From Candidatus Latescibacterota bacterium (GTDB taxonomy: Bacteria; Latescibacterota; Latescibacteria; Latescibacterales; Latescibacteraceae): a DNA stretch of 64,000 nt. Both the position numbers and the translations under genes were made by a program. The stretch is from positions 3,585-67,584 of the forward strand of contig JAFGMP010000040.1 in NCBI GenBank assembly GCA_016927495.1, in the 5' to 3' direction. Positions within the stretch are counted from its first letter, which is position 1. The number at the start of each line of letters is the position of its first letter. Of the stretch, positions 1-34,322 are shown piece after piece. The notes below the pieces were generated by a model. That model saw only the letters and a list, made by a program, of their open reading frames with translations. It had not been told where the DNA came from and made no database searches.

Positions 1-2760
1 CTGAGCGATGAAGGACACAGTGTCAGAAAACGTATCGATCAGTTAATCAGAATTCTCGGTGCAAAATTCCCGATTTATGTTTTAGTGACAAAGCTGGACC
101 TTGTACAGGGAATGGTTGAATTTACCAATCTTATACCCAAACAGGCCCGTGACCAGGCTATGGGTTATGTCAACAAACAAAGTACCCATGACTGGAAAAC
201 GGTGCTCGATCAAACCTTTACGAGTGTTGCCGAACGTATTAAAACATTGCAGTTAATTATGGTTCATCAGGAAGATTTCATCGAACCGGAAATTTTTCTT
301 TTCAACAATAACTTCGAACGACTTCGTTTGGGTCTGGAATTGTATGTCCGGGCAGTTTTTGAACAGAATCCTTATCAGGAAACACCATTATGCAGAGGTG
401 TCTTTTTCTCAAGCGCAATTCAGGAAGGCAAACTTCCACCCGAATCCGAAAAAATGTTTGGAGTCAATAAAAAGGAAATACAGGATATTGGGCATAATAA
501 CGGTTTGTTTTTAAAAGATATTTTTAAAAAAATTCTGCCAAAAGACCGAAATCTTTTTATACCAATACAGGAATTTCTTTCATGGTACCGTCTGACAAGA
601 AATATGGTGCTACTTTCATGGATATTGCTATGGTTGTCTGCGGGTGGGATAATGAGTTTTTCATACATAGTAAATCTGAATGCATTTAATGTTGCGAAGA
701 GGTCATTACCTCAACCTGAAATCATAGGAGATTTCGCATATGATATGCATAATATAAACACATTTCGATCAAGAATATCGGAAATGGAAAGAGCAAATCA
801 TAAATGGTTTATTCGCTGGTTCGGATTCCGATACAGTCTTGCTTTTGAAGTAAAACTAAAAATTAAATTTTTACAATTGTTTCGTGATGAAATACTCTAC
901 CCCTTTGATAGTGAACTTGTAAAAAATTTAAGTAATACGGATTTAACTACTAAAAATGAATCATTCTGGGAGTATTTTAATTATTATAATGCACGTATAA
1001 CTCTGTTACGGGATTACCTGAAAAACAGGAACTCCTTTTCCATGGAGCATTTTATCGCAATATCAGGTGATATTATGAAAAAAAATTATCCTGATCTTAC
1101 TTCCGGAACTGTTTCTATGTTCGGCGATAGTTACCATGATTATCTTTTATGGAATGAGGATACGAAAGAATTTAACCGGCAACTTTTTAAATTTCAGGAA
1201 ATCCTCAATAATCTGCTTCAAAAGAACAGAAACCTGAATGCCATTCTTTTGAATTCAATCGAAGGTGTCCCTGATGTTCGAATGAGTGATTTCTGGGGAG
1301 GAAGTGAATATGGGGGACAAAATAAAATTATAATCCGGGGAACATATACCCATGCCGGACAACAACAACTTGAAGAACTTTTGGATAAAATGGAAAAAGC
1401 GGTAGTCGATACTTCTGTAATCTCAGATGAAAAGAGAGAATTCTGGTCGCAGTATCAACTGCAATTTTATGATGAGTGGAACAATTTTTCTCGAAGTTTT
1501 TATGTAAATTCCGGTGAATTGAGAGACAGTAAAGAATGGAAGTATATCGCTGCATTAATGACTTCCGAGAACAATCCCCATTTCCAGTTCATGGAAAGTA
1601 TGGCGGATGAATTTTCTCAACTCCCGCAAATTCATCAGGAACCCTCATGGGTGAGTCTGGTAAGGGAACTTGATGAAGTTCGAAAACTGACCGAAAAAAA
1701 TGAAACTGCAAAACCACAATCGCTTCTCAGTAAAATTGAAGACCAAAAAGATAAAATTGTACAAAAAACAATTGAAAAAACAGACTCACGTAAAGTCTAT
1801 GAAGAAAAAATCAGGCAGGAAGCGGCAATTGTCCTTTCTGATTATGTTAAAGCAATTATACAAATCGCTCCGGCCCTGACATCCCGTGAATTTTGTTTTC
1901 AAATGGTATCAAACTCAAGCCAGTCTCCATTGGCCGCTGCAGAAAATACATTTTTAAAACTGCAAAGTATTTTGGGTAGTCAGGGAAATCTTTCCCCCGT
2001 ATGGGATCATATCATAGCGCCGCAGCGCTTTCTTGCCGATTATGCTATAAAAGAAACAGCCTGTGTGCTGCAGGCACAATGGGAAGAACAGGTATTGGGT
2101 GGATTAAAAGGTGTGGTAACAGATGAAATCCCTACAGCACTTTTTTCGGATTCGGGAGGATTGGTATGGCAATTTCTTGATACCAGCGGCAAGCCGTTTA
2201 TTACCCGTGACAGACGCGGTTATTCTGCTCGTGAAATTCTTGATCGAAAACTACCGTTTAAAGCCGCATTTTTCGATTTCATCAATTCCGGACCGGAAAG
2301 TATCATTAACTTCAAACCGGAATATATAGTAACCATGGAAACATTACCTATCGAGGTTAACAGCGGAGCCCGGGTGAAACCTCAGGCATGCACACTCGGA
2401 CTTCGATGTTCGGATGAAATGTTTATTCTTGAAAATTATAACTACCCGCAGAGCAAAACATTTTTATGGTCTCCCGATAAATGTGGTGATGCGACTATAA
2501 CCATTCTTTTTCCCGATAATAAGATTGTCAAAATTTATGGTGGCAATATGGGATTTGCCACACTCCTGTCAGAATTCAGAGATGGCAGCAGAACATTCAG
2601 GGCTGATGAATTCTCAAGAAATAAATCTTTTCTGGATACTATGAATATCTCATGGATACGCTTATCATATAAAATTACCGGAAGTAAAGACGTGCTTCAA
2701 TTGCTTGAAAAAAAACCGTTACGCGTACCTATGGAAATTGTTGATTGCTGGTCACCCTAA
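1..2760 (+). CDS. tssM: Type VI secretion membrane subunit TssM (IcmF-like), 5'-truncated by the window edge
   Basis: The frame is open from position 1. The translation begins ...FPIYVLVTKLDLVQGMVEFTNLIP, which resembles the IcmF/TssM motif LPVYLV(F)TK(C)DLL..F. A long C-terminal IcmF-related region follows, and tssA-tssB-tssC come next. Confidence 0.8.
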   Translation: MSDEGHSVRKRIDQLIRILGAKFPIYVLVTKLDLVQGMVEFTNLIPKQARDQAMGYVNKQSTHDWKTVLDQTFTSVAERIKTLQLIMVHQEDFIEPEIFLFNNNFERLRLGLELYVRAVFEQNPYQETPLCRGVFFSSAIQEGKLPPESEKMFGVNKKEIQDIGHNNGLFLKDIFKKILPKDRNLFIPIQEFLSWYRLTRNMVLLSWILLWLSAGGIMSFSYIVNLNAFNVAKRSLPQPEIIGDFAYDMHNINTFRSRISEMERANHKWFIRWFGFRYSLAFEVKLKIKFLQLFRDEILYPFDSELVKNLSNTDLTTKNESFWEYFNYYNARITLLRDYLKNRNSFSMEHFIAISGDIMKKNYPDLTSGTVSMFGDSYHDYLLWNEDTKEFNRQLFKFQEILNNLLQKNRNLNAILLNSIEGVPDVRMSDFWGGSEYGGQNKIIIRGTYTHAGQQQLEELLDKMEKAVVDTSVISDEKREFWSQYQLQFYDEWNNFSRSFYVNSGELRDSKEWKYIAALMTSENNPHFQFMESMADEFSQLPQIHQEPSWVSLVRELDEVRKLTEKNETAKPQSLLSKIEDQKDKIVQKTIEKTDSRKVYEEKIRQEAAIVLSDYVKAIIQIAPALTSREFCFQMVSNSSQSPLAAAENTFLKLQSILGSQGNLSPVWDHIIAPQRFLADYAIKETACVLQAQWEEQVLGGLKGVVTDEIPTALFSDSGGLVWQFLDTSGKPFITRDRRGYSAREILDRKLPFKAAFFDFINSGPESIINFKPEYIVTMETLPIEVNSGARVKPQACTLGLRCSDEMFILENYNYPQSKTFLWSPDKCGDATITILFPDNKIVKIYGGNMGFATLLSEFRDGSRTFRADEFSRNKSFLDTMNISWIRLSYKITGSKDVLQLLEKKPLRVPMEIVDCWSP

Positions 2761-2787
2761 TTCAGACAGTGAAAAAAGGGAATAATA

Positions 2788-4377
2788 ATGGATATATCTG
2801 AACTGGGTCTGCTTCCGATCTCAGAAAACAACCCCTCTGGTGATGATGTTCGCTACGAGCCTGAGTTTGAAGCACTGGAAAATGAAATACAAAAACTGTC
2901 TTCACCTTCTTCTTCCGAAGGTATAGACTGGAATAAGGTCATATCTCTTTCAAGTGATATTTTGGGTGGAAGATCGAAAAATCTTCTTGTTGCCAGTTAT
3001 TTATGCATAGCGCTGATTAATGTTAAAGGTTTGCAGGGTTTTGCAGACGGCATTCATGTATTGAGAGGGCTTCTGGAAAACTTTTGGGAAACGATGTATC
3101 CTCCGAAAAAAAGGATGAGAGGCAGAACTAATGCTATTGACTGGTGGGTAGAAAAAGTTGATGCTATAATCGAAAATAAGGAAGTTGAAAAATGGCCGTC
3201 GGAGTTACGCACCAGTTTCGCCGATGACCTGCATGCCATTGATACGTTCCTTGGAGAAAATGTCGAAGATGCTCCCATACTCACAACAATGAATGAACGT
3301 ATTTTGGCATTGGTCGAAATTGAGAAAGCTCCGGAATTACCATCTGTAGAGGAACCGTCAGGAGAAGTGTCCAGAGAAAAAGTTGATGCCGCACCTGCGG
3401 AAAGTAAGGAAAAAGAAACCGTAATTCCTGACGCTCCTCCTCCCACTTTAAAATCGGTTCAAACCCAGGAAGCCGATACCGGTGAGGATGCCGAAAAACT
3501 CATCAAACAGGGTTTGGATATACTCGGTAAAGCAGCGACACTGCTTATCAAAAAAGAAAATTTGACTTCCGTTCCGTTTCGTTTGAACAGAATTGTCGCC
3601 TGGCTGCCTGTGCAGAATTTGCCGCCGGTCAGCGATGGCAAAACATTGATTCCACCTCCTGACGAACAGATTATTTCCACACTACGCAATATGTATCAAA
3701 CACAAAAATGGCGTGATTTGTTACAAGCGGCGGAATCGAGGGTACGTCAATTTCTGTTCTGGATAGACCTCAGCAGGTATGTCGCAGAATCGCTTGAACA
3801 ATTACGCTACCCCGACATTTGCTCAACCGTAAGTTCCGAGACTCTTAACTACGTGAACCGTTTGCCAGGTATCGAAAAACTGGCTTTTGCCGACGGCACT
3901 CCTTTTGCCGATGTAGAAACCAAAGAATGGTTAAGGACACTGATACAACAACACGGTACGGCCGGTGCGTCAACCGGACCCGGCGGCAGTGAAATTGAAC
4001 AACTCGTTGAACAGGAGCTTGCCCAATCACAGAAATTGATAAAAGAAAACAAATTACCCGGTGCATTAAGCGGTTTCAAGAACAAAGTCAACAGCGCAGC
4101 ATCATCACGGGAACAATTTATCTGGGAAATTGGACTTTGCCGGTTATTGCTTCGTGCAAAATTACCCAAACTTGTTGTTCCGAATTCCTTGAAAATTCTT
4201 GAGATGATAGACACATATAAGATCGATGAATGGGAACCGGCGCTTGCCGTTGACGGACTCACCGTTGTTTTATCAGGACTAAAACTCCAGGAAGACAATA
4301 AGGATGAAGAGTTGATTAAAAAGATCATTGACCGTATTGCAACGATAAATCCCGCAAGGGTTTTAGATTTTATATGA
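2788..4377 (+). CDS. tssA: Type VI secretion protein TssA (ImpA_N family)
   Basis: The N-terminus PISENNPSGDDVRYEPEFEALENEIQKL matches the ImpA_N signature (PISEDNPCGEDLRYDPEFEAL-like). A RBS sits upstream and the gene lies between tssM and tssB. Confidence 0.8.
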   Translation: MDISELGLLPISENNPSGDDVRYEPEFEALENEIQKLSSPSSSEGIDWNKVISLSSDILGGRSKNLLVASYLCIALINVKGLQGFADGIHVLRGLLENFWETMYPPKKRMRGRTNAIDWWVEKVDAIIENKEVEKWPSELRTSFADDLHAIDTFLGENVEDAPILTTMNERILALVEIEKAPELPSVEEPSGEVSREKVDAAPAESKEKETVIPDAPPPTLKSVQTQEADTGEDAEKLIKQGLDILGKAATLLIKKENLTSVPFRLNRIVAWLPVQNLPPVSDGKTLIPPPDEQIISTLRNMYQTQKWRDLLQAAESRVRQFLFWIDLSRYVAESLEQLRYPDICSTVSSETLNYVNRLPGIEKLAFADGTPFADVETKEWLRTLIQQHGTAGASTGPGGSEIEQLVEQELAQSQKLIKENKLPGALSGFKNKVNSAASSREQFIWEIGLCRLLLRAKLPKLVVPNSLKILEMIDTYKIDEWEPALAVDGLTVVLSGLKLQEDNKDEELIKKIIDRIATINPARVLDFI

Positions 4378-4529
4378 GAGTAAAATTTTAAACATAAAGA
4401 TCACATAATGTTGAATTCTTTTTTACTTTTCTCTTTTGGGAAGGTGGATATTATCACTCCCCCTCCGGGTGAAATGAAAATGGAATTTAATCAGATTTTT
4501 CATCATTAATTTTTTGAAGGAGGTACGAG

Positions 4530-5015
4530 ATGCCAAAAGAATCTTCGGTGGCTCCGAAAGAACGTGTCAATATTGTTTATCGGCCCGCAACCGGTGGAGC
4601 GAATGAAGAAGTGGAATTGCCATTAAAAATTCTCGTTATGGGCGATTACACGTTAAAAGAGAATGAGACACCAGTTGAAGACCGAAAACCGGTCAACATC
4701 GACAAGGATAATTTTAACGATGTCCTGAGTGCTCAAAAAGTCGGCCTTGAAACGGTTGTAGACAATACTCTCACAGGTGAGGAAAATGCCAAACTAAATG
4801 TCAATCTTGACTTCAAAACCATGAGAGATTTCGAGCCCGATGCAATCATAAGAAAAGTACCGGAACTTACTGCTCTGGTCGAATTGCGGGAAGCGTTGAA
4901 AGCTTTAAAAGGTCCGCTCGGAAATGTGCCGGAATTCAGAAAAAAGATTCAGGAACTTGTCAAAGATGCGGGAGCGAGAGAACGTCTCCTTAAAGAACTT
5001 GGAATTGAACAATAA
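4530..5015 (+). CDS. tssB: T6SS contractile sheath small subunit TssB (VipA)
   Basis: 161 aa. ERVNIVYRPATGGANEEVELPLKILVMGDYT matches the TssB N-terminal consensus. A strong RBS GAAGGAGG precedes it, and it lies directly upstream of tssC. Confidence 0.9.
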   Translation: MPKESSVAPKERVNIVYRPATGGANEEVELPLKILVMGDYTLKENETPVEDRKPVNIDKDNFNDVLSAQKVGLETVVDNTLTGEENAKLNVNLDFKTMRDFEPDAIIRKVPELTALVELREALKALKGPLGNVPEFRKKIQELVKDAGARERLLKELGIEQ

Positions 5016-5026
5016 GGGTAATTACT

Positions 5027-6517
5027 ATGGCTGATGAACAAAAAAAGGCACAGGAAGCTCAACAGGCGGGAACCGTTGAAGGAGCATCTTCTCTGTTGGA
5101 CGAAATTGTGCAGGCTACAAAACTGAAGCCTTCTGATGAAGGTTATTCAGCAACGAAACAGGGAGTACAGGCATTTATCGACGAGCTTCTGAAACCCGGC
5201 CGTGAAGAAGCACGTGTTTCGGCAGGTCTTGTTGATGAAATGATAGCAAATATCGATCAAAAGCTGAGCAGACAAATGGATGCTATATTGCATAACGAGG
5301 ATTACCAGAAACTTGAATCTGCCTGGCGCTCATTAAAATTCCTGGTTGACAACACTAATTTCAGGGAAAACATTAAAATTGAAGTCCTGAATGTTAACAA
5401 ACAGGATTTATTCGATGATTTTGAAGATGCACCGGAAGTTGTCAAATCAGGTCTTTACAAGTTGGCATATACGGCTGAATATGGGCAGTTTGGCGGTCAG
5501 CCATATGGTTTGATGGTCGGCAACTATGAATTTGGGCCGGGAGCCCAGGATATTAAATTGCTTCAGCACCTTGCAAGCGTTGCTACAATGTCTCATGCAC
5601 CGTTTGTAGCCGCAGCAGGTCCCCAATTCTTCGGATTGGAAAATTTTAGCGGGCTTCCGAATCTCAAGGATCTGAAATCTATCTTTGAGATGCCTCAATA
5701 CACTAAATGGCAGGGATTCAGGGAATCGGAAGATGCCAGAAATGTTGGTCTGACAATACCACACTTCCTTCTCCGAACACCCTATGATCCTGAAAATCAA
5801 CCGGTGAAAAGCTTTAATTACCGGGAAGAAGCGGCTGCAGGCGATAATGCTTATCTCTGGGGTAACGCCGCATTTACGTTTGCATCAAGGATTGCAGACA
5901 GTTTTGCCAAGTACCGCATGTGTTCCAATATTATCGGACCACAGGGCGGTGGTGCTGTTGAAGACCTTCCCGTACACAATTATGAATCTATGGGTGAAAT
6001 ACAGACCAAGATTCCGACCGAAATTCTGATTTCCGAACGCAAAGAATTCGAGCTTGCAGAAGAAGGTTTTATAGCGCTTACAATGAGAAAAGGCAGCGAT
6101 AATGCAGCTTTCTTTTCGGCAAACTCATGCCAAAAAGCTAAAACTTTCGCTAATACACCCGAGGGCAAACAGGCACAACTGAATTATAAGTTAGGCACCG
6201 AGTTACCTTATAATTTTGTTGTTAGCCGTCTGGCACACTATTTGAAGGTACTTCAACGGGAGAATATCGGAAGCTGGAAGTCAAGGGTTGATCTTGAAAA
6301 CGAACTTAACAAGTGGATTACCCAGTATGTATCCGACCAGGAAAATCCGTCACCCGGTGTGCGCAGCCGAAGACCGTTGAGAAAAGCTTTGGTCGAGGTT
6401 GCGGATGTCGAGGGTGAACCCGGTTGGTACCGTGTATCGCTGAAAGTGCAGCCGCATTTCAAATATATGGGCGCTTCTTTTACATTATCGCTGGTTGGTA
6501 AACTCGATAAATCATAA
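5027..6517 (+). CDS. tssC: T6SS contractile sheath large subunit TssC (VipB)
   Basis: 496 aa, about the size of TssC, with an N-terminal SLLDEIV... segment. The rest looks like a sheath-family protein, and the gene is paired with tssB. Confidence 0.9.
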   Translation: MADEQKKAQEAQQAGTVEGASSLLDEIVQATKLKPSDEGYSATKQGVQAFIDELLKPGREEARVSAGLVDEMIANIDQKLSRQMDAILHNEDYQKLESAWRSLKFLVDNTNFRENIKIEVLNVNKQDLFDDFEDAPEVVKSGLYKLAYTAEYGQFGGQPYGLMVGNYEFGPGAQDIKLLQHLASVATMSHAPFVAAAGPQFFGLENFSGLPNLKDLKSIFEMPQYTKWQGFRESEDARNVGLTIPHFLLRTPYDPENQPVKSFNYREEAAAGDNAYLWGNAAFTFASRIADSFAKYRMCSNIIGPQGGGAVEDLPVHNYESMGEIQTKIPTEILISERKEFELAEEGFIALTMRKGSDNAAFFSANSCQKAKTFANTPEGKQAQLNYKLGTELPYNFVVSRLAHYLKVLQRENIGSWKSRVDLENELNKWITQYVSDQENPSPGVRSRRPLRKALVEVADVEGEPGWYRVSLKVQPHFKYMGASFTLSLVGKLDKS

Positions 6518-6623
6518 CCGATGTAAGTTTTGTATGCTTTTTTCTATATATTTTTGAAAGGAGGAGTATGAAACAAAATACAAATCCCGATCTATTAATT
6601 ATTAATGTCTCTTTTTTGAATGT

Positions 6624-6670: not shown

Positions 6671-6693
6671 CGTATCTTTTGGAGGATTCTACC

Positions 6694-7182
6694 ATGGCTA
6701 TGACATCGTATATGAGTTTGACAGGTAAAAATCAGGGAGTAATGGAAGGTGACTGCACACAGGCGGGCCGTGAAGGAAAAATTCTTGTGTATGATTTAAA
6801 GCATGAGATCGAAATACCTCGTGACACGCATACGGGTTTACCGACCGGTCAGCGTATCCATCATCCATTGATAATCACCAAACATATCGACAAAAGCTCT
6901 CCCAAACTGATGCAGGCATGTACCAGCGGAGAACAATTCTCCGATGTCGAAGTCCAGTTTTATCACATAAATGAAACCGGACAGGAAGAACATTATTATT
7001 CAATCAAATTGTCAAACGCAATTATTGTGAAAATGAAAAACAACAAACCTATGACTTTTTTACCGGAAAACAAACCATATCATGATATGGAGGAAGTCTG
7101 GTTTACGTACGAGAAAATTATTTGGGTACAGGAAATCGACGGCATCGAAGCAGAAGATGACTGGAAAACTCCGAAAGCTTAA
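6694..7182 (+). CDS. hcp: Hcp (TssD) T6SS inner tube protein
   Basis: 163 aa from the ATG at 6694, with a RBS GGAGGA at 6681-6686. MAMTSYMSLTGKNQGVMEGDC...PTGQRIHHPLIITKHIDKSSPKLMQA fits the Hcp family. The ORF track starts at a TTG at 6679, but the ATG is the more likely start. Confidence 0.9.
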   Translation: MAMTSYMSLTGKNQGVMEGDCTQAGREGKILVYDLKHEIEIPRDTHTGLPTGQRIHHPLIITKHIDKSSPKLMQACTSGEQFSDVEVQFYHINETGQEEHYYSIKLSNAIIVKMKNNKPMTFLPENKPYHDMEEVWFTYEKIIWVQEIDGIEAEDDWKTPKA

Positions 7183-7192
7183 ATTTCCTCAT

Positions 7193-7235
7193 AATATGCC
7201 GTATCGGCAAACGCTGCTGATACGGCATATTATTT
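7193..7235 (+). terminator. Candidate rho-independent terminator downstream of hcp
   Basis: A 13-bp perfect stem (AATATGCCGTATC / GATACGGCATATT) encloses a 13-nt loop and is followed by ATTTAAAAAATACTT. It lies 10 nt after the hcp stop. Confidence 0.5.
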
Positions 7236-7271
7236 AAAAAATACTTAACATATTAAACAGGTTATTATTTT

Positions 7272-7685
7272 ATGTCTGATGAGCGGTTACTGGAACGTAT
7301 TAGAAACCTGGAAAACAATCCCGAAACACGAACCGAGCGAAGCCTGAGTCGAAAAATAAATTCCATAATCGCGCACCTGCAAAATCTCTTAAATACACAC
7401 CAGGGCAGCGTACTTATTGCAAACGACTATGGAATTCCCGATATAACCAATTCCCATGGAGAGGGTATAACGGAACTTACGCGCAGAATCGAGCGTACTC
7501 TTCAGCAGACAATTTTAAAATATGAACCCAGGTTAACCAATGTTCGGGTCAAATTGCTGTCTGAAAAAGATGATGTGCTTAATATGCGGTTTAAACTTGA
7601 AGCGGTTCTTGTTCATGACAATTCTATTCCGGTGATTCTGGAAACCGTTGTAAGCGCCGACGGAAAAGTTGAAATATCGGAATAA
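7272..7685 (+). CDS. tssE: T6SS baseplate protein TssE (gp25-like)
   Basis: 137 aa, the size and position expected for TssE between hcp and tssF. The N-terminal LLERIRNLE... segment looks gp25-like. Confidence 0.75.
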   Translation: MSDERLLERIRNLENNPETRTERSLSRKINSIIAHLQNLLNTHQGSVLIANDYGIPDITNSHGEGITELTRRIERTLQQTILKYEPRLTNVRVKLLSEKDDVLNMRFKLEAVLVHDNSIPVILETVVSADGKVEISE

Positions 7686-7703: not shown

Positions 7704-9437
7704 GTGTTTAATATTTATTATCAACAGGAATTACAAAATCTCAGAGATCTTGCCCGCGAGTTTTCAAAAGTACACCCGTCAATCGCTCCGTTGCTCAGCG
7801 GTACTTCTTCTGACCCGGATGTTGAAAGACTGCTGGAAGGCGTAGCATTTCTTACCGGACTGTTACACCGGAAACTGGATGATGAATTTCCCGAAATCAT
7901 TCACGGATTGATGGATATAATCTTTCCCCATTTCCTCAGGCCGATACCTTCAACATCAATTGTGGTTTTCAGCCCGAAACCAAGCATGCAGGAAACAATA
8001 AAAGTCACGGCCGGGACATCTCTTGCATCGATACCTGTTGAAGGCACATCTTGTTTTTTCAGAACATGTTTTGATACTGAAGTTCATCCGCTTCGCCTGA
8101 AATCGGCAGAATTGACACAAAAATCAGGCCAAAACGATCTGATACGGCTTGTGTTTGAACTATCGGGACAGAACCTTTCCCAATGGCAACCGAAATGTCT
8201 TAGTTTCTTCCTGGGAAGCAGTTATACTCAGGCCAGTAACCTCTATATGCTTTTAACAAAATATGTCAAAAATATTATCCTGAAATCTGTAAAAAGTGAA
8301 AATAAATGTTATTTACCGCCATCATCCTTGATACCATCCGGATTACTGCCTGAAAACAGCCTTTTGCCATTCCCCACTCATTCTTTCAGGGGTTACAGGT
8401 TTTTGCAGGAATATTTCATTTTGCCTCAAAAATTCCTTTTTCTGGAACTGCAGGATTTTGAAAAATGGACAGATCGCGGAAACGGTTCAACGTTTGAAAT
8501 AATATTCGAGATGGGACAATCACCTTTACCGGTCCCAAAAATCGGTATCGATAATTTTATTCTCTTCGCAACACCGGTGATTAATTTATTTCATGATGAT
8601 AACGATCAGTTTACACTCGATCATCGCCTCGAAAAAATTCGGGTAAGGCCCTCGACAAAATCCAAAGACCATTATCAGGTTTTCAGCGTCGATAAAGTTG
8701 TAGGTTTCAAACAAGGCAGTGTTGCACAAAAAGAATACACACCACTTGAACTTTTTTCACATCAGAAAAATGATTCAAGCGTATATCAGGTTATCCATGC
8801 AAGGTCGCCGATTGACAATTCTCCGGAACTGTATTTATCATTTACCTATCCCCCTGAAGGACCGGCGCCGGAACCGGAAACCCTTACGATGTCATTAACA
8901 TATACCAACGGAACACTACCCGAACGTCTGCAACTCGGTGATATTTGTGAACAAACCTCAAACTCACCGGGTTTGCTTGACTTTAAAAATATACTACCAC
9001 CGACAGCACCTGTCGAACCGTTATTGGGGAAAAATACTCTTTGGCGTTTACTCTCTCATCTTTCATTGAATCTGTTGAAAATTTCCAATACTGATTCGAT
9101 CAAAAACCTTTTGAGACTGTACACATCGCCGGAAGGAAAAGACCGAACGAAAATTTCAGCCAACATGAAAAGAATCGACGGCATCGAGAAATTTATTGTA
9201 ACCCCTGTGGATCGTCTTGACGGTGGGCAGGTTATTCGTGGGCAAAAGATTGATATTACAGCTCGGGTGGACCATTTTGCCTGTCTGGGCGACCTTTATA
9301 TTTTCATATCGGTTTTGGATTTATTTTTAGGAATGTATAGTTCGATGAATTCATTCATGCAACTGACGTTAAAAGATTCCATTACAGGAGAGGCATTCAC
9401 TTGGCCGGCACGTTTAGGGGACAGACCCCTGATATAA
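7704..9437 (+). CDS. tssF: T6SS baseplate protein TssF
   Basis: The start is a GTG. FNIYYQQELQNLRDLAREFSKVHPSIAPLL matches the TssF N-terminal consensus (YYNRELAYLRELGAEFA..HPKIA). 577 aa. Confidence 0.85.
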   Translation: MFNIYYQQELQNLRDLAREFSKVHPSIAPLLSGTSSDPDVERLLEGVAFLTGLLHRKLDDEFPEIIHGLMDIIFPHFLRPIPSTSIVVFSPKPSMQETIKVTAGTSLASIPVEGTSCFFRTCFDTEVHPLRLKSAELTQKSGQNDLIRLVFELSGQNLSQWQPKCLSFFLGSSYTQASNLYMLLTKYVKNIILKSVKSENKCYLPPSSLIPSGLLPENSLLPFPTHSFRGYRFLQEYFILPQKFLFLELQDFEKWTDRGNGSTFEIIFEMGQSPLPVPKIGIDNFILFATPVINLFHDDNDQFTLDHRLEKIRVRPSTKSKDHYQVFSVDKVVGFKQGSVAQKEYTPLELFSHQKNDSSVYQVIHARSPIDNSPELYLSFTYPPEGPAPEPETLTMSLTYTNGTLPERLQLGDICEQTSNSPGLLDFKNILPPTAPVEPLLGKNTLWRLLSHLSLNLLKISNTDSIKNLLRLYTSPEGKDRTKISANMKRIDGIEKFIVTPVDRLDGGQVIRGQKIDITARVDHFACLGDLYIFISVLDLFLGMYSSMNSFMQLTLKDSITGEAFTWPARLGDRPLI

Positions 9438-10420: not shown

Positions 10421-10466
10421 TAATGATATATATAGCTTAACATTCACGATGATAAGGAGAATTCAT

Positions 10467-28726: not shown

Positions 28727-29397
28727 ATAAGAAATTAAACAATCATATTGAAAGATGCTGGAAGCAAATCGGAATTTTCGGAGATTCCACATGTGATAAG
28801 CTCGATGATGTTGTACACTGCAGAAATTGCCCGCAATATTTTAAAGCTGCAATCAGGTTATTCGACAAGGAAATTCCCGAAGGATACCTTGAAGAAAGCA
28901 CGAGTTTGTATGCCAATCCTGAAGAAACCGAAAAACCCGATATTATTTCAGTAGTTGTGTTTAGGCTCAATTTCGAGTGGCTCGCTCTGAAAACCAAATA
29001 TTTACAGGAAGTTACAAAAATGCTCCCTGTCCATTTCGTACCGTTTCGCACGAACAATGTTTTCAAAGGACTGGTAAACATCAATGGTGTTCTCGTCCCA
29101 TGTGTTTCTTTAGCTAATATTATCGGACTTACCGGGGAGAACGATGTACAATCAACACTAACGGTCTACAAACGCATGATTGTTGTCGGTAACGACAAAG
29201 ATCGGTATGTATTTATCGCTGATGAGATGATCGGGATACGCCGTATATCGCCACATGATCAAAAAAAAGTACCAGCTACTTTATCCAAATCAGCAACCGT
29301 TTTCAGTTCGGGTATCTACACTATCGATGATAAAACTGTCGGACTTTTGCAGACAGATTCGTTTTTCAGTTCATTAAAAAGGAGTCTGACATTTTGA
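28723..29397 (+). CDS. CheW-like protein with an N-terminal Cys4 (zinc-ribbon-like) segment
   Basis: The start overlaps the cheR stop (ATGA). The N-terminus is ERCW...STCDKLDDVVHCRNCPQYF (C-x11-C-x8-C-x2-C). A CheW-like domain follows (VVVFRLNFEWLALKTKYLQEV...VNINGVLVPCVSL). Confidence 0.7.
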   Translation: MNKKLNNHIERCWKQIGIFGDSTCDKLDDVVHCRNCPQYFKAAIRLFDKEIPEGYLEESTSLYANPEETEKPDIISVVVFRLNFEWLALKTKYLQEVTKMLPVHFVPFRTNNVFKGLVNINGVLVPCVSLANIIGLTGENDVQSTLTVYKRMIVVGNDKDRYVFIADEMIGIRRISPHDQKKVPATLSKSATVFSSGIYTIDDKTVGLLQTDSFFSSLKRSLTF

Positions 29398-29408
29398 ATA
29401 ATCAGAGC

Positions 29409-32093
29409 ATGGGCGAGTTTAATAATCTTACAATGTTGGATATTTTTTGCACTGAATTGAAAACTGCCGTACAGACAATAGAAACTGGCCTGACGAATAT
29501 TGAAAGTGACCATTCACCTGAAAAAATCGAACCGCTTATGCGAGCCGCCCATTCCATCAGAGGCGCAGCACGTATAGTCGGTCTTGATATTATTGTGATT
29601 TTTGCCCACTCAATAGAGGAAGCCTTTAACTATGCTTTGAGCGGAAATGTTAATATTACACCGGATATCTTGGATATTTTATTGAAATGTAACAAAATAT
29701 TCATGGAGCTATCCGATCTTAAAACGACAGATATTCCTTATCATCTGGAAAAAAACAAGAAAAAAATAGAATCTCTTGGTGATCAATTACAAAATATGAT
29801 TGCTTTGCAGATTTCCCATATTACCGTCAAAGAACCGATACCTGCAGAAAGTAAGCAACATGCGGCATCTTCACCGTTCAATGAGATATCCGATCGATCG
29901 ATATTCGAACTCTTTCTTATTGAAGTCGAAAATCACAGCCGGGTTATTGAAGAAGTATTAGTTGAAATCGAAAAGGAACAGACACCTGAAAAAATCGAAC
30001 CGCTTATGCGAGCCGCCCATTCCATCAAAGGTGCAGCACGCATTGTAGGTTTAAATCTCGAAGTATCGCTTGCACATACCATGGAAGATGTATTTTCAAG
30101 AGCACAGCGCGGCGATCTGAAATTAACCTCAAAACATATCGACCTCCTACTGCACAGTAACGACTTTTTCCGTAAACTGGCTGCATTAAAAATAAATGAT
30201 ATATCTAATTGGCTTGTCGAACAATCCGATAATATCAAAGCTTTGACCCAGGCACTAATCGATATACTTGCAGGAAAACCTGCAAGAATACCCCAAAATA
30301 GAGTTGAAACGCAAAAAAAATTAAGCCAAGATCAACAAGATTTAACCTCAAAAGATGATAGTTTAGTGCGGGTACTCGCTGAAAACTTAAACCGTATAAT
30401 GGGTCTTGCTGGCGAATGTCTGGTTCAGGCACGTTTTTCGAAACCATTTTCTTCCTCACTGCTGCAGATGAAAATCAATTGTATGGAATTAAACAGTATC
30501 ATGGAAAGCATTCTTCTCTCACCAGAGGCTGAAATGATACCGGAAGGATTGTATATAAAAATCAATGATTCACACAAGAAAATAAATCACATTCATGATT
30601 TACTCATGGAACATATTGTGGATTACGAACACTTTTCTCAGCGTCTTGAATATTTTTCGGAACATCTCTACAATGAAATAATTAACAGTCGGATGAGACC
30701 GTTTTCGGACGGGCTCCATGGATTTCAACGTATGGTAAGAGATCTGGCTCAAAAAATGAGAAAAGAAGTTGAATTCAAGGTTCTCAAAGGTTCCACCCGC
30801 GTTGACAGTGACATTCTGGAAAAACTTAAGGCGCCGCTCACTCATTTGATACACAATGCCATAGACCATGGTCTGGAGACGCCGGAAGAACGGATTAACG
30901 CCGGTAAACCTGCAAAAGGACGACTGGTATTTGAGGCTCGCCATATGTATGGTATGTTGAATATCACTGTTTCCGATGATGGAAGAGGTATAGATCCGGA
31001 GATTATACGTCAAAAAGTTTCAAAAACAGGGCAGGTCTCAAAAGATATCGCTGAAAATTTGAGCGATTTGGAGCTTTTTGATTTTCTGTTTCTACCAACT
31101 TTTTCCACAGCCGGAAAGGTTTCGGAAATTTCCGGCCGCGGAGTCGGCCTCGATGTGGTTTCTTCCATGGTACACGAAGTTGGTGGTTCCGTTCACATCG
31201 AATCAAACATAGGAGAGGGGACGACTTTTCATCTGCGGCTTCCCCTAACTTTATCGGTACTGCGCACACTGCTGGTAGAGATAAATAATGAACCATACGC
31301 TTTACCGCTGACTCGTATTGAACACGTCATTGAGATAGAACAACAGGATTTGCATATTTTAGAAGACCGTCAATTCTGTACTCTTGAAAATGAACATATA
31401 GGAATAATACATGCCCGTCAAATAATGCGAATACCTGATTCACAAAGTGATTCTGGACGGTTATGTATAGCGATTATTAAAGACCGGTTAACTCAATACG
31501 GCATTGTTGTCGACCGTTTTCTCGGTGAACGGGAACTCGTTGTTCGGCCGCTTGATCCACGGCTTGGTAAAATTCCCAATATCAGCGCCGGTTCAATTAT
31601 GGAAGACGGTTCTCCGGTTTTGATCATGGATGTTGATGATCTCGTGCGTTCAATTGACAACATCTTATCCAATGCACGGCCAGATAAAATGCTTGGTAAA
31701 AAGACTCAGTTACATCTAACCAAAAAACGTGTACTCGTTGTCGATGACTCTTTGACAGTACGGCAGGTTGAGCGAAAACTTCTTGAAAACAGAGGATATG
31801 AAGTAGTTGCGGCTGTCGACGGTATGGATGGATGGATTACACTTCAAAGCAATATATTTGACCTTATAATCTCTGATGTTGACATGCCCAGACTTAACGG
31901 AATCGAATTGGTCAGAAAAATTAAAAACGATCCCAAACTGAAAGATATTCCCGTGATGATTATATCGTATAAAGATCAGGAAGAAGATAAATTACGGGGT
32001 TTGGAGGCAGGCGCCAATTACTATTTGACTAAAGCAAGCTTTCACGACGAAACGCTGATAGATGCGATAAGAGACCTGATTGGAGATCCATAA
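29409..32093 (+). CDS. cheA: CheA-type histidine kinase hybrid with two Hpt domains, HATPase, a CheW-like domain and a C-terminal receiver
   Basis: There are two Hpt units ([23 protein letters not shown] and [23 protein letters not shown]). The ATP-binding region has [17 protein letters not shown] and GRGVGLDVV motifs. A CheW-like domain ([17 protein letters not shown]) precedes a C-terminal REC ([12 protein letters not shown]...[13 protein letters not shown]). The ATG at 29409 is preferred over the TTG at 29394. Confidence 0.85.
29515..29559. repeat. 45-nt exact direct repeat, copy 1; copy 2 is at 29983-30027, inside the two Hpt domains of cheA
   Basis: CACCTGAAAAAATCGAACCGCTTATGCGAGCCGCCCATTCCATCA occurs identically at both positions. 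Confidence 0.9.
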
Positions 32094-33117
32094 AAGATTG
32101 CGTATCGCTATTGTAAACGATCAAAACATTGCAGTTGAAACCATTCGCCGGATTGTGATTACCGTACCAGAGTATGAAATTGCATGGATTGCATCAAATG
32201 GCGCGGAAGCATTGGAAAAGTGCCGTAAGGATAAACCGGACCTTATCTTAATGGATATTGTAATGCCCGTAATGGATGGAGTTCAGGCAACCAGTGCGAT
32301 AATGGAGTCATGCCCCTGTGCAATACTTGTCGTTACTGCAACAGTATCCGGAAATGCGACAAAAGTGTTTGAGGCAATGGGATGCGGCGCTCTCGATGCA
32401 GTATCCACACCTGTTTTTAACGGTGAAGGAAAAATTGTTGGCGCTGATGATCTGATAAAAAAAATTAACATGCTGGGTAGACTCATCAGGGTAAACAATA
32501 CAGACAGAAAAACAGTACCAATAGAAAAAAAATCAACATCTTCAGTTGTTCCACCACTTGTGGCAATCGGATGCTCAACCGGAGGCCCTAAAGCTCTTTC
32601 CATAATTCTTTCCGGAATGCCCAAAAATCCGGGTGCTTCTTTTGTAATCGTGCAACACGTCGATGTCCAGTTTGCCAGTGGCCTCGCCGAATGGCTTAAT
32701 AATCAGACCAAACTTGATGTAACACTAGCCCGTGAAGGCAGGCAGCCGGAAAAAGATACGGTTTATATTGCTGAAACGAACGACCATTTGGTTATAAATT
32801 CGGATTTGACTTTCCATTACACAAAAGAGCCGCGAGATTACCCTTTCAGGCCTTCAATTGATACATTTTACCTGAGTATCGACAAAAACTGGCCGAGGAA
32901 AGATATAGCCGTATTATTGACGGGTATCGGCAAAGACGGCGCGCATGGATTACTTGCCCTGAACAAAGCAGGCTGGCATACTATCGTACAGGATGAAAAA
33001 ACATCGGTCGCTTTCGGTATGCCCAAAACGGCAATAATTTTAGGAGCTGCCAAACAAATATTACCGATTGACAATATCGAAGATTCAATTATGAAACAAT
33101 TAAAGAAAAGAGTATAA
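32080..33117 (+). CDS. cheB: CheB methylesterase with an N-terminal receiver
   Basis: The REC is [12 protein letters not shown]...[14 protein letters not shown]. The methylesterase core is [21 protein letters not shown]...FVIVQHVD. A probable TTG start overlaps the cheA end. Confidence 0.85.
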
Positions 33118-33122
33118 AAAAT

Positions 33123-34322
33123 ATGCATTCTACCGATAGTAACAAAATCTCATCACCGCTTACACAGTATGATATCACCGTGCTGTTGGTAGATGACCAA
33201 AAAATAGTCGCCGCAGCAGTTGAACGTATGCTTGGGGGAGAAAAAGATATAACCTTTCACTACTGCCAGGATCCGACCAAAGCAATCAGAGTAGCATCCG
33301 AGATATTCCCAACCGTTATACTTCAGGATCTTGTCATGCCGGAAATTGACGGATTAACCCTTGTCAGGTTTTTCCGCGCCCATCCTCAACTCAAAGATGT
33401 GCCGCTCATCGTTCTTTCGACAAAAGAAGAAGCTATCACCAAAGCCGATGCCTTTTCCTTGGGAGCAAACGACTATCTCGTAAAATTGCCCGATAAAGTT
33501 GAACTGATCGCCCGGATTCGCTATCATTCACACGCATACATCAACCTTTTGCAGCGAAACGAAGCCTATAACGAATTGCTGAAAAGCCAGCAGGCTCTTG
33601 CATCGGAACTCGCCATAGCAGCGGATCATGTTACCTCACTGCTTCCGCAGCCAATCACTGCCGGGCCTATCCTGACCGACTGGTATTTTGTACCATCAAC
33701 TCAATTAGGAGGTGATTCGTTCGGTTATCACTGGATCGATGAAGATCATTTTGCCATGTATCTCCTCGATGTGTGCGACCACGGTGTCGGTTCGGCGCTT
33801 CTCTCTGTTTCGGCGCTCAATGTTCTGAGGTCTCAAAGCCTGCCCGATACAGACTTTAAAATACCCGAAAAGGTTCTATCCGGACTCAATGATGCATTTC
33901 AGATGGATGATCATAACAACCTATATTTCACACTCTGGTATGGCGTGTTGAATACGAAAAATTATGAACTCAAATATGCCAGCGGGGGCCACCCTCCTGC
34001 GTTCCTTTTCTCCGGTACAGATCGGTTTGATGAGTTGATTACAAAAAACTTCCTTATCGGCGGACTTCCTGGCTCAGTTTACAAAGGTGAATCGGTACAG
34101 ATTGAACGTCCAGCACGTCTTTATATTTTCTCGGATGGTGTGTATGAGGTACATCGTCAGGATGGCACAATGTGGGGATTGAGTGAACTCCATAACTTTC
34201 TTATGAATCCTCATGAAGAAACCACATCCGAAATCGAGAAATTATATTCGCTGGTACATGAAATCAATGGAAACAAAAATCTCGATGATGATTATTCAAT
34301 ACTTAAGGTTAGTTTTCTTTAA
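33123..34322 (+). CDS. Response regulator with a PP2C/SpoIIE-type Ser phosphatase output (RsbU-like)
   Basis: The REC is VLLVDDQKIVAAAVERML...DLVMPEIDGLTLV...PLIVLSTKEE. The PP2C region is GGDSFGYHWIDEDHFAMYLLDVCDHGVGSALLS...YIFSDGVYE. Confidence 0.8.
   Translation: MHSTDSNKISSPLTQYDITVLLVDDQKIVAAAVERMLGGEKDITFHYCQDPTKAIRVASEIFPTVILQDLVMPEIDGLTLVRFFRAHPQLKDVPLIVLSTKEEAITKADAFSLGANDYLVKLPDKVELIARIRYHSHAYINLLQRNEAYNELLKSQQALASELAIAADHVTSLLPQPITAGPILTDWYFVPSTQLGGDSFGYHWIDEDHFAMYLLDVCDHGVGSALLSVSALNVLRSQSLPDTDFKIPEKVLSGLNDAFQMDDHNNLYFTLWYGVLNTKNYELKYASGGHPPAFLFSGTDRFDELITKNFLIGGLPGSVYKGESVQIERPARLYIFSDGVYEVHRQDGTMWGLSELHNFLMNPHEETTSEIEKLYSLVHEINGNKNLDDDYSILKVSFL

Follow-up and report, generated by a model that had tools for sequence, protein, structure and literature searches.

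In Bordetella, the BtrU/BtrV/BtrW partner switch controls type III secretion, and the Btr set is required for secretion. In Pseudomonas aeruginosa, the threonine phosphorylation pathway of the H1 type VI secretion system (H1-T6SS), TagQRST-PpkA-PppA-Fha1, makes T6SS activity responsive to a signal from the envelope. For the Pseudomonas Wsp system (WspA-F and WspR), gene order and WspR function have reportedly been described, and Agrobacterium Tde2 is said to exemplify a VgrG-DUF2169-DUF4150 (PAAR-like) loading module. Some partner switches have outputs other than a sigma factor; HsbR/HsbA and V. fischeri SypE/SypA belong to this group. P. aeruginosa SiaABCD does as well (PMC7647112, PMC9239204). 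The che1 locus of Shewanella oneidensis encodes the CrsR/CrsA partner switch, which controls RpoS, and chemosensory (Che) input to this switch has been proposed but not proven (PMC9855816).

Here, we describe a gene run within a 64-kb stretch of DNA (the window) from the metagenome-assembled genome of an uncultured Candidatus Latescibacterota bacterium. The run is best explained as two separable units that abut each other, a T6SS cluster and a Wsp-type chemosensory/partner-switch unit. The first unit would comprise the tssM-vgrG core, a VgrG-DUF2169-pentapeptide-DUF3540-PAAR-like module, and a protein previously labelled an orphan; the second would be a Wsp-type Che pathway with a REC-PP2C response regulator, working with an RsbW-like kinase and a STAS protein.

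T6SS core and layout of the gene run

Pfam scans placed all of the gene families named in the original prediction where it had put them, and every gene from base 1 to 34322 is on the + strand, as it had also proposed. The T6SS core consists of the following genes:

1-2760, +, tssM (icmF-like; PF14331 IcmF-related_N, E=6.6e-41), 5' end beyond the window edge
2788-4377, +, tssA (Pfam ImpA_N and T6SS_VasJ)
4530-5015, +, tssB, sheath (T6SS_VipA, E=2.8e-56)
5027-6517, +, tssC, sheath (VipB, E=5.5e-130, and VipB_2)
6679-7182, +, hcp (T6SS_HCP, E=4e-35)
7272-7685, +, tssE, baseplate (GPW_gp25)
7704-9437, +, tssF, baseplate (T6SS_TssF, E=5.9e-144)
9401-10420, +, tssG, baseplate (T6SS_TssG, E=4.9e-78)
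10386-13094, +, clpV (AAA_2, AAA_lid_9, ClpB_D2-small)
13219-16155, +, vgrG, 978 aa (Phage_GPD, E=1.3e-68)

Because its reading frame is open from base 1, tssM is truncated by the window edge. Family searches of the 64-kb window found neither PpkA, PppA, nor Fha, and likewise no activator of sigma-54, and none of tssJ/K/L, fha, or similar genes was present at 36-64 kb, which agrees with the absences reported earlier; these latter genes may be located to the left of the window edge. ClpV has 58-82% identity to ClpV of related loci, and the C-terminal ~420 residues of VgrG gave no Pfam or PDB sequence match. In the gap 3' of hcp, we read a perfect 12-bp inverted repeat (7194-7205/7219-7230) followed by an A/T-rich tail.

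Spacing is less uniform than the gaps of 4-40 nt or overlaps first described, as several gaps measure 63-172 nt (TssA-TssB, 152; TssC-Hcp, 161; Hcp-TssE, 89; ClpV-VgrG, 124; VgrG-DUF2169, 87; PAAR-'orphan', 63; STAS-MCP, 172; MCP-CheW, 84), with the remainder of the run at 1-38 nt or overlapping. A one-strand gene run could by itself arise by chance, and what matters is whether the linkage is conserved.

VgrG module and the 'orphan' protein

Downstream of vgrG are the following genes:

16243-18030, +, DUF2169 (Pfam)
18063-19085, +, first pentapeptide-repeat protein (Pfam)
19087-21525, +, second pentapeptide-repeat protein (Pfam)
21564-22472, +, DUF3540 (Pfam)
22491-22892, +, PAAR-like protein, 133 aa, without a toxin domain (PF13665, formerly DUF4150)
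22944/22956-23732, +, 'orphan', T6SS-associated (conserved family)

This module resembles Agrobacterium Tde2-type modules in combining VgrG and DUF2169 with a PAAR-like protein of the DUF4150 family, alongside pentapeptide-repeat and DUF3540 genes. However, the PAAR-like protein in the window has only 133 aa and carries no toxin domain, no obvious effector/immunity pair follows its gene, and the last gene encodes a conserved flavodoxin-like/beta-sandwich protein.

The protein encoded by this last gene gave no match in Pfam, NCBIfam, or PADLOC, yet the orphan label is wrong, since related loci identify it as a well-conserved T6SS-linked family, and in most of these loci the DUF2169-pentapeptide-DUF3540-PAAR-like module also lies 5' of the family. 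Its likely start codon is M5 (MKKVW), at 22956, and it has a flavodoxin-like (TIR/receiver-like) N-terminal domain and a beta-sandwich C-terminal domain. We regard it as an accessory protein that closes the T6SS cluster. Alternatively, it could be cargo of the PAAR-like protein with an effector or immunity role, and RsbW-STAS would regulate or neutralize it; its position directly 3' of the PAAR-like gene and the TIR-like fold of its N-terminal domain are consistent with this idea, which we nevertheless judge very improbable.

Partner-switch pair and chemosensory block

The second unit begins 16 nt past the 'orphan' gene and consists of the following features:

23749-24165, +, RsbW/SpoIIAB-like serine kinase (HATPase_c_2, E=3.6e-25)
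24190-24522, +, STAS anti-sigma-factor antagonist (STAS, E=2.4e-21; NCBIfam TIGR00377 above cut-off)
24523-24694, +, AT-rich STAS-MCP spacer, 172 nt, the largest gap of the run
24695-26914, +, MCP with periplasmic Cache_3-Cache_2 sensor, WspA position (Cache_3-Cache_2, E=4.3e-96; MCPsignal, E=1.2e-31)
26999-27460, +, CheW, WspB position (Pfam CheW)
27464-28726, +, CheR-TPR, WspC position (Pfam CheR and TPR)
28723-29397, +, CheW-like protein, WspD position (Pfam CheW)
29394-32093, +, hybrid CheA, Hpt(x2)-HATPase-CheW-REC, WspE position (Pfam Hpt, HATPase_c, CheW, Response_reg)
32080-33117, +, CheB methylesterase, WspF position (CheB_methylest, E=1.7e-53)
33123-34322, +, REC-PP2C response regulator, WspR position (Response_reg and SpoIIE)

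The top PDB matches of the kinase are RsbW (6m36) and SpoIIAB, and its N-box (E46/N50), G1 (D80), and G2 (GGLG, G105-G108) residues are conserved; it is possibly an anti-sigma factor. The STAS protein aligns to SpoIIAA and TM1442, and its S54/S55 residues are invariant among five homologues, with S55 in DYVSSAGL as the phosphorylatable serine.

The Che block has the same gene order as Pseudomonas Wsp (MCP, CheW, CheR-TPR, CheW-like, CheA-REC, CheB, response regulator), and its CheB falls within the NCBIfam NF009206 subfamily (424 bits against a cut-off of 342). REC-PP2C residues 9-161 match WspR structures (PDB 3bre, E=1.1e-51; 3i5a, E=2.7e-51). The protein has a receiver and stalk of the WspR type, but a SpoIIE/PP2C phosphatase replaces the GGDEF domain. 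More than 120 homologues have 63-76% identity to it, and residues D24, D25, D69, K121, D198, D216, D338, D389, and D390, which include the REC Asp and the PP2C metal-binding Asp residues, are invariant among 36 homologues. Whereas the Wsp output domain is GGDEF, that of the window is SpoIIE/PP2C and therefore provides no direct c-di-GMP output; the window pathway also differs from Wsp in the periplasmic Cache_3-Cache_2 sensor of its receptor and in the RsbW/STAS pair that accompanies it.

Conservation of the linkage

Comparison of related genomes gave a divided answer: at least six distinct lineages keep the T6SS, switch, and Che neighbourhood, with three gene orders among them, but outside their clade the Che block is unlinked to the T6SS. 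Among linked lineages, pairwise identity of the 'orphan' protein is 60-73%. Order (a), that of the window, is 'orphan'-RsbW-STAS-MCP...PP2C; in order (b) (L086 and L087/L088), 'orphan'-RsbW-STAS is followed by the entire Che block inverted; and in order (c) (L002), the arrangement is 'orphan'-MCP...PP2C-RsbW. The L003 locus stops at CheR and matches order (c) up to that gene, and 'orphan'-RsbW-STAS is present in L179. All relatives with an 'orphan' protein at least 60% identical and with enough contig show the linkage. In orders (a) and (b), RsbW starts 15-16 nt past the 'orphan' stop codon, so it is probably transcribed together with the T6SS, including in loci with a convergent Che block.

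The linked genomes all belong to one Latescibacteria-like clade; therefore, shared ancestry accounts for part of the recurrence. This restriction to one clade favors an alternative that we consider a serious possibility, though short of an even chance, in which the two units adjoin each other but are not connected by regulation. The Wsp-like module would then control something else (e.g., an alternative sigma factor, or biofilm or stress functions, as other partner switches do), and the neighbourhood would reflect one ancestral juxtaposition followed by local inversions. Since an in-place inversion keeps neighbours together, orders (a) and (b) require no selection. The closest PDB and NCBIfam matches of the kinase, the anti-sigma factors RsbW and SpoIIAB, also fit this alternative. 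The 172-nt STAS-MCP gap permits separate transcription, which counts against the T6SS as output of the switch. This spacer is a possible internal promoter site for the Che operon; a consensus scan found a weak TTGACA-16-CAAAAT at 24669-24696, with a site count no higher than in shuffled sequence.

Loci beyond the linked set add to the case for two independent neighbours. In L092, L093, L175, and L176, housekeeping genes surround orthologues of the Che-REC-PP2C operon (63-70% identity, same Cache MCP), and neither a T6SS nor RsbW/STAS occurs within 10 kb. No T6SS genes were found in 80 metagenome Che-REC-PP2C loci, only 19 of which extend 9.5 kb upstream. Within one Syntrophaceae assembly (CAZBME01), contig 2 (L057) carries the 'orphan'-type T6SS, whereas the Che operon is found on contig 3 (L176). 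Che genes lie downstream of the T6SS in two of 67 'orphan'-type loci with at least 2.5 kb downstream and are absent there from the other 65. A strain variant (L177/L178) has lost the T6SS, with a 34-nt remnant of the 'orphan' gene, but keeps RsbW-STAS and Che beside a porin gene; the signalling unit therefore persists without the T6SS. This distribution, across phyla and with high conservation, indicates that the Che-REC-PP2C unit is an autonomous, widespread module.

Against mere adjacency, the linkage persists at 50-65% protein identity and has outlasted two or more rearrangements, including one that shifted RsbW-STAS from one end of the Che block to the other. Moreover, RsbW-STAS stays 15-16 nt past a T6SS gene and co-oriented with it even in loci with convergent Che genes. 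The signalling module is not adjoined by a sigma factor gene in the window, L109, L129, or L139.

RsbW/STAS is directly 3' of REC-PP2C in 14 of the 62 metagenome loci with room, as well as in L002, a placement that assigns the switch pair to the Che/PP2C unit. Its company in many such loci would also suit a feedback or adaptation branch, in which RsbW/STAS acts within the chemosensory pathway (e.g., STAS on the receptor array or CheA); in Campylobacterota, gene neighbourhoods have led to the proposal that a STAS protein acts on a chemoreceptor (PMC9239204). We consider such a branch very unlikely, as the pair is not adjacent to the orthologous operon in the other 48 loci or in the four housekeeping-flanked loci above, CheR and CheB already serve adaptation, and it would be left unexplained why RsbW-STAS keeps its place in the T6SS operon despite inversion of the Che block.

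Proposed mechanism

The genes present, their domain families, the conservation of catalytic and phospho-acceptor residues, and the recurrent linkage are directly established, and the gene parts and residues support a complete partner switch that would be fed by the chemosensory pathway. A periplasmic signal would act through the Cache MCP to alter CheA autophosphorylation, and CheA would phosphorylate the REC-PP2C receiver. The phosphatase and the RsbW-like kinase, working in opposition, would set the phosphorylation state of STAS Ser55, and unphosphorylated STAS would capture RsbW, or itself bind a target, to release the output. We infer the CheA to REC-PP2C phosphotransfer and the role of STAS as PP2C/RsbW substrate; the wiring of Che to the partner switch as a whole is likely.

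In the Latescibacteria-like clade, this unit has come to lie beside the T6SS, with RsbW-STAS inside the 3' end of the vgrG operon. Because no switch target (sigma factor or other) was identifiable within the window, we infer T6SS control from the gene neighbourhood. That the switch couples T6SS expression or activity to a chemosensory signal in this clade is our preferred but tentative reading, to which we give close to an even chance. The original prediction of a Che-gated switch attached to a T6SS holds in that the switch is complete and the linkage recurs, but as a general rule it is not supported outside the clade. If regulatory, the pairing in Latescibacteria may be an undescribed mode of secretion-machine control.

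Comparison with known systems

A literature search found no published description of a T6SS combined with a Che-driven partner switch; a Che locus encoding a partner switch was already known (PMC9855816).

Like the H1-T6SS pathway, the window encodes a reversible Ser/Thr phosphorylation module, with a PP2C-family phosphatase, together with a T6SS. However, the Hanks-type kinase and FHA substrate of H1-T6SS are both absent from the window, which instead has a GHKL-type RsbW kinase, a putative STAS substrate, and chemoreceptor-array input. As in Bordetella, PP2C, STAS, and RsbW-type kinase genes lie beside a secretion-system locus; the Btr proteins serve a T3SS, BtrU has no receiver domain or chemosensory input, and the Bordetella locus encodes the sigma factor BtrS, whereas no sigma factor gene was found in the window. 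In SiaABCD, HsbR/HsbA, and SypE/SypA, STAS acts directly on an enzyme or machine, so a direct T6SS target is conceivable; the outputs of these switches, however, consist of diguanylate cyclases or polysaccharide loci, and, unlike the window, none is tied to a Che array or T6SS cluster.

Like the window, Shewanella che1 is a Che cluster that also encodes a REC-PP2C phosphatase function, together with a kinase of the anti-sigma type and its STAS-type antagonist. Whereas CrsR is a single three-domain protein (REC-PP2C-kinase) and che1 is an F7-type array (PMC9855816), the phosphatase and kinase of the window are separate genes within a Wsp-like system; che1 targets sigma-S and has no adjoining T6SS, whereas the switch in the window sits directly behind one.

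Organization of the co-directional gene run

Based on the ORF listing and Pfam scans, bases 1-34322 of the window hold 25 consecutive genes on the + strand. The Pfam scans of the window ORFs bore out the gene families named in the original prediction, as well as their placement on a single strand.

Genes of the co-directional run, with families assigned by Pfam
From base 1, + strand: T6SS core, tssM, tssA, tssB, tssC, hcp, tssE, tssF, tssG, clpV and vgrG
Downstream of vgrG, + strand: VgrG module, DUF2169, two pentapeptide-repeat proteins, DUF3540, a 133-aa PAAR-like protein (PF13665) and a 258-aa protein without a Pfam match (22956-23732)
23749-24165 and 24190-24522, + strand: switch genes, an RsbW-like HATPase_c_2 kinase and a STAS protein
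24695-34322, + strand: Che block, Cache_3-Cache_2 MCP, CheW, CheR-TPR, second CheW-like protein, hybrid CheA (two Hpt, HATPase, CheW, REC), CheB and REC-SpoIIE/PP2C (33123-34322)

All 10 core proteins (TssA, TssB, TssC, Hcp, TssE, TssF, TssG, ClpV, VgrG and TssM) scored well beyond the thresholds of their respective Pfam families. Because the reading frame of tssM is already open at base 1, the window edge cuts the gene and the cluster extends further left; TssJ, TssK and TssL had no Pfam match within the window and may lie upstream of this truncation. None of tssJ, tssK, tssL, fha and ppkA was found in the 36-64 kb part of the window, and neither a Hanks-type kinase (Pkinase) nor an FHA domain was matched in scanned window ORFs of at least 90 aa. 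Other post-translational regulators of the T6SS are absent from the window.

Spacers of 4-40 nt had been described throughout the run, but eight intergenic gaps measure 63-172 nt. The largest (172 nt) is AT-rich and falls exactly between the STAS and MCP genes. A perfect 12-bp inverted repeat (ATATGCCGTATC / GATACGGCATAT, with a 13-nt loop, then TATTTAAAAAA) lies directly 3' of hcp (window 7194-7230), and this hairpin looks like a terminator or attenuator that would set hcp apart from tssE-vgrG. Promoter and terminator scans of 1-36.5 kb returned site counts at most ~2 sd above shuffled sequence: the first half had 54 sites versus 40.4 in the shuffled sequence (sd 7.0), and the second half fell below the shuffle mean. 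The intergenic gaps contain no motif of the sigma-54 type. Within the run, only the hairpin that follows hcp and the 172-nt STAS-MCP gap offer usable operon boundaries. An Rfam scan of the whole window gave no match to any regulatory RNA, c-di-GMP riboswitches included.

Downstream of vgrG, the DUF2169 adaptor (PF09937, E=4.9e-94) is accompanied by the pentapeptide-repeat proteins and DUF3540, and the PAAR-like protein matched PF13665 with E=1.9e-34. Based on Pfam, the 133 aa of the PAAR-like protein consist of the PAAR-like domain only, with no toxin domain; no effector or immunity gene lies beside it, the next gene being that of the 258-aa protein. The window VgrG is 978 aa long, compared with 812-824 aa in two related loci (L086 and L087), and its last ~420 residues (~560-978; window 14896-16155) have no Pfam match and no PDB sequence match.

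The run is ended by a convergent gene (34309-35535, - strand) that encodes a CarboxypepD_reg-Big_7-Spondin_N protein by Pfam and overlaps the REC-PP2C gene by 14 nt at its 3' end; the Spondin_N domain is more familiar from the extracellular matrix proteins of animals. Beyond it, eight genes for BamB-like PQQ_2 beta-propellers lie on the + strand within 36032-60667. Interleaved with the propeller genes are a NuoF/NuoE-like fusion, 4Fe-4S proteins, an FAD/Fe-S oxidoreductase, a GT4 glycosyltransferase and a MacB-type ABC pair.

Propeller genes and the fusion among them
36032-37390, + strand: BamB-like PQQ_2 propeller
37481-38869, + strand: BamB-like PQQ_2 propeller
39565-41010, + strand: BamB-like PQQ_2 propeller
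41074-42066, + strand: NHL-type propeller
44340-46034, + strand: BamB-like PQQ_2 propeller
46038-48398: NuoF/NuoE-like fusion
49893-51146, + strand: BamB-like PQQ_2 propeller
56614-57939, + strand: BamB-like PQQ_2 propeller
57969-59354, + strand: BamB-like PQQ_2 propeller
59330-60667, + strand: BamB-like PQQ_2 propeller

A Wsp-like chemosensory pathway with a phosphatase output

The seven Che genes identified by Pfam (MCP, CheW, CheR-TPR, CheW, hybrid CheA-REC, CheB and response regulator) follow gene for gene the arrangement of the Pseudomonas Wsp system (wspA-F, then wspR). The same order is kept in five other loci (L092, L093, L095, L175 and L176) and in many metagenome loci. Residues 9-161 of the REC-PP2C protein, which span the receiver and a helical stalk, matched crystal structures of the Wsp response regulator WspR (3bre, E=1.1e-51; 3i5a, E=2.7e-51), and this match directly supports the Wsp-type assignment of the gene order. 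The whole protein matched the REC-PP2C protein 3eq2 (E=1.7e-22), and CheB scored 424 bits against NCBIfam NF009206 (cut-off 342). The response regulator had no Pfam match to GGDEF; its output domain is SpoIIE/PP2C (E=6e-35). By its predicted domains, the pathway is thus Wsp-like upstream with the GGDEF output replaced by a PP2C phosphatase, and it is not the Wsp c-di-GMP system.

More than 120 homologues of the REC-PP2C protein, at 63-76% identity, were identified in Latescibacteria, Syntrophales, Syntrophorhabdaceae, Lentisphaerae and other groups; over the four named groups the protein is 63-77% identical. Wsp-like operons with REC-PP2C as their last gene form a very widespread, strongly conserved family present in several phyla; we found no experimental description of them in the literature.

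Components of the predicted partner switch

Among 36 homologues of the REC-PP2C protein, the receiver residues D24, D25, D69 and K121 and the PP2C metal-binding residues D198, D216, D338, D389 and D390 are invariant. The STAS protein has a single domain that aligns with SpoIIAA, TM1442 and 4hyl, and S55 occupies the phospho-serine position; this residue lies in the sequence DYVSSAGL, which lines up with DSAGL/SSAGL, the corresponding motif in TM1442 and 4hyl, and five homologues all retain S54 and S55. The best PDB matches of the RsbW-like kinase were RsbW (6m36) and SpoIIAB, and E46 and N50 of the N box, D80 of G1 and GGLG of G2 (105-108) are conserved in this predicted GHKL serine kinase. 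Judging from these residues, all three switch proteins look catalytically competent, and the predicted REC-PP2C/STAS/RsbW partner switch appears to have its components and key residues in place. A signalling chain from MCP through CheA and REC-PP2C to STAS/RsbW is likely; this reading draws on the families of the parts, and we regard it as well-founded.

RsbW-like homologues at 40-45% identity (P0011 and P0019) were dropped as markers of the switch, as they are paralogues whose surroundings, a CHASE histidine kinase operon and genes for Por-secretion substrates, are unrelated.

A conserved T6SS accessory family

The 258-aa protein encoded between the PAAR-like and RsbW-like kinase genes had been labelled an orphan, a label refuted by its membership in a conserved, T6SS-linked family. 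A database clustered at 90% contained 214 homologues with up to 69% identity, and searching a family profile against all 1.84 billion representatives identified 231 cluster representatives, nearly all of them stand-alone proteins of 255-265 aa. A GTDB scan with one genome per species yielded 80 loci that carry the family, from Desulfobacterota (Syntrophales and Desulfobacterales), Acidobacteriota and Latescibacterota. We used TBLASTN to align all 25 window proteins against these loci; this analysis placed T6SS genes within 10 kb of the family gene in 69 of the 80. The gene just before it encodes a PAAR-like or DUF3540 protein in 21 of these loci, ClpV in 14 and a TssB-TssC-like fusion in 10. 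The protein thus represents a conserved T6SS accessory family without a Pfam model.

AlphaFold predicted the structure of the accessory protein confidently (pLDDT 91.6), with a flavodoxin-like N-domain and a beta-sandwich C-domain. The top Foldseek ranks were TIR domains of SPARTA and MyD88; the N-domain has no invariant Glu among the aligned homologues, and PADLOC gave no match. The accessory protein is not effector-like. One cluster representative (P0268, 758 aa) has an N-terminal FHA domain, an SLT lytic transglycosylase domain and the accessory domain at 500-757, and is either a true fusion or an artefact of merged gene calls; if true, its domain composition would be a weak hint of a role in T6SS assembly or regulation, not in toxicity.

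A conserved regulator downstream of the accessory gene was rejected, as the genes found there in the 80 loci are heterogeneous (vgrG, DUF2169, the TssBC-like fusion and others). In many Desulfobacterota/Syntrophales loci, the gene adjoining the accessory gene encodes a ~527-aa protein in which a VipA (TssB)-like domain is joined to a VipB (TssC)-like one; examples are L041 (8366-9949), L005, L038, L042, L046, L051, L057, L061, L064 and L073. The fusion is only 21-26% identical to the window TssC, and L061 encodes an ordinary tssC (78% identical) in the same locus; this fused second sheath-like paralogue is absent from the window.

Linkage of the T6SS with the chemosensory switch

Among the 67 accessory-family loci with at least 2.5 kb of downstream sequence, Che genes follow the accessory gene in only two (L002, from bacterium SM23_31, and L003), both among the closest relatives of the window. 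Targeted look-ups added L086 (GCA_021372535.1), L087/L088 (JGI metagenomes) and L179. The linked loci show three gene orders: (a) in the window, accessory-RsbW-STAS-MCP...PP2C; (b) in L086 and L087/L088, clpV-vgrG-DUF2169/PRP-DUF3540-PAAR-like-accessory-RsbW-STAS, then a convergent, inverted Che block running from PP2C back to MCP; and (c) in L002, accessory-MCP...PP2C-RsbW, with L003 the same as far as CheR, where the locus ends. L179 has accessory-RsbW-STAS. Linkage is present in every relative with an accessory protein at least 60% identical and enough contig. The linked lineages are distinct, since their accessory proteins are only 60-73% identical pairwise. L003 (DATKXY010000275.1; P0029) comes from a metagenome-assembled genome labelled "archaeon" (SMAG_U14205), but it carries a bacterial-type T6SS vgrG module, the accessory gene and Wsp-like Che genes, with proteins 51-64% identical to those of the window; the label is probably wrong.

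In orders (a) and (b), RsbW starts 15-16 nt past the stop codon of the accessory gene. Based on this spacing, RsbW-STAS and the T6SS vgrG operon probably share a transcript, also in loci whose Che genes are opposed. Control of the T6SS by the switch, to which we give just under an even chance, is favoured by this co-oriented position close behind a T6SS gene, by the persistence of the linkage at 50-65% protein identity through at least two rearrangements, and by the lack of any other T6SS post-translational regulator in the window.

The same comparison, made from the Che side, argues for a switch that is a mere neighbour of the T6SS and is targeted elsewhere, a reading that is quite possible while falling somewhat short of even. 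In L092, L093, L175 and L176, the Che-REC-PP2C operon, often with the same Cache MCP, stands alone between housekeeping genes with no T6SS and no RsbW/STAS around it. Assembly CAZBME01 contains both L176 and, on another contig, the accessory-type T6SS of L057. A metagenome scan for REC-PP2C added 80 loci; none contains a T6SS gene, with only 19 of them extending 9.5 kb upstream. CheB lies directly upstream of REC-PP2C in 43 of the 65 metagenome loci with room, and RsbW/STAS directly downstream in 14 of 62. From these neighbourhoods, the switch travels with the Che/PP2C unit, and the unit is autonomous in most lineages.

Two further cases show the systems apart. One locus (L089/L091; ENA ERZ21831202 contig_14) keeps the T6SS and the accessory gene and is missing the Che and RsbW/STAS genes; a lone convergent REC-PP2C gene (69% identity) lies ~12 kb off, past two PATR-repeat genes and a DDE transposase. 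The other (L177/L178) shares its RsbW protein with L179, the two stretches being 97% identical in nucleotide sequence across 824 nt (L179:1079-1902 versus L177:849-1672). Here a porin gene lies upstream of RsbW, and the homology to L179 begins 34 nt before the accessory stop codon. The T6SS block appears to have been deleted or replaced at the level of individual strains, with RsbW-STAS and the inverted Che cluster left intact. Coupling is thus disfavoured by the autonomy of the signalling module elsewhere, by the unlinked occurrence of both systems within one assembly, by the persistence of the module after T6SS loss, and by the common ancestry of all linked cases.

The search for a target also weighs against coupling. 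No sigma factor gene was found in the 64-kb window, and none adjoins the module in L109 and L139. A conserved gene after RsbW/STAS in other taxa was rejected as a candidate target, because an Opp-type ABC transporter follows in L139 and PRTase-CE/ORC-CDC6-like genes in L109, with nothing shared. The lack of a sigma factor, of a shared downstream gene and of a regulatory RNA all count against control of the T6SS.

Taken together, these are two separable units that became joined in one clade, with RsbW-STAS set into the T6SS operon at its 3' end. The T6SS, switch and Che genes do occur together, in three gene orders within that clade, whereas in most lineages the Che/PP2C unit is autonomous. The original prediction of a Che-gated switch tied to the T6SS therefore holds for its gene families and for linkage in a small Latescibacteria-like clade, but not as a general arrangement. 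Were the switch to control the T6SS, the chemoreceptor array might govern assembly or firing post-translationally through REC-PP2C/STAS/RsbW, with STAS or the RsbW-like kinase binding a T6SS component directly. We consider this specific mechanism unlikely. The putative bound component would be, for example, the flavodoxin-like accessory protein, whose gene lies 16 nt upstream of the kinase gene, or else the sheath or ClpV.

Significance and comparison with known systems

The locus is a T6SS cluster with an attached Wsp-like chemosensory partner switch, and the link between them is suggestive, its strength limited by its basis in gene neighbourhood in uncultured organisms. It is also apparently undescribed: as predicted, we found no account of a T6SS with a chemosensory partner switch in the full-text literature, where REC-PP2C outputs of ACF-class systems may have been catalogued earlier. 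T6SS firing is costly, and to our knowledge only a handful of routes gate it (threonine phosphorylation, TagF, quorum sensing, c-di-GMP and Gac/Rsm). If wired to the T6SS, a chemoreceptor-driven partner switch would be a new gating route, and it would give a function to a widespread, apparently unstudied Wsp-like pathway with a phosphatase in place of the WspR cyclase. Direct binding, if true, would constitute a new class of T6SS input replacing PpkA/PppA/Fha in Latescibacteria-like bacteria. If the linkage is incidental, the locus still illustrates the shuffling of signalling modules beside secretion systems, and a natural T6SS-plus/T6SS-minus pair remains for comparison.

The PpkA/PppA/Fha pathway uses a Hanks-type kinase and an FHA protein, neither of which was matched in the scanned window ORFs. 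Wsp has a similar upstream pathway, but the window system lacks its defining GGDEF output. The window phosphatase, STAS protein and kinase all conform to the RsbU/V/W type, with no partner target seen in the window. Bordetella BtrU/V/W, which accompanies a T3SS, is a precedent for a partner switch beside a secretion system; it has no Che input, whereas the window switch adjoins a Che block. In SiaABCD, a STAS protein acts on a non-sigma target (PMC7647112; PMC9239204). CrsR and CrsA, both encoded at the Shewanella che1 locus, control RpoS; Che1 as their input is only a proposal (PMC9855816). In Shewanella, REC, PP2C and kinase domains are combined in one three-domain protein, whereas the window phosphatase (33123-34322) and kinase (23749-24165) are encoded by separate genes. 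The che1 array is described as F7 (PMC9855816) and involves no T6SS, whereas the window array is Wsp-like and lies beside a T6SS.
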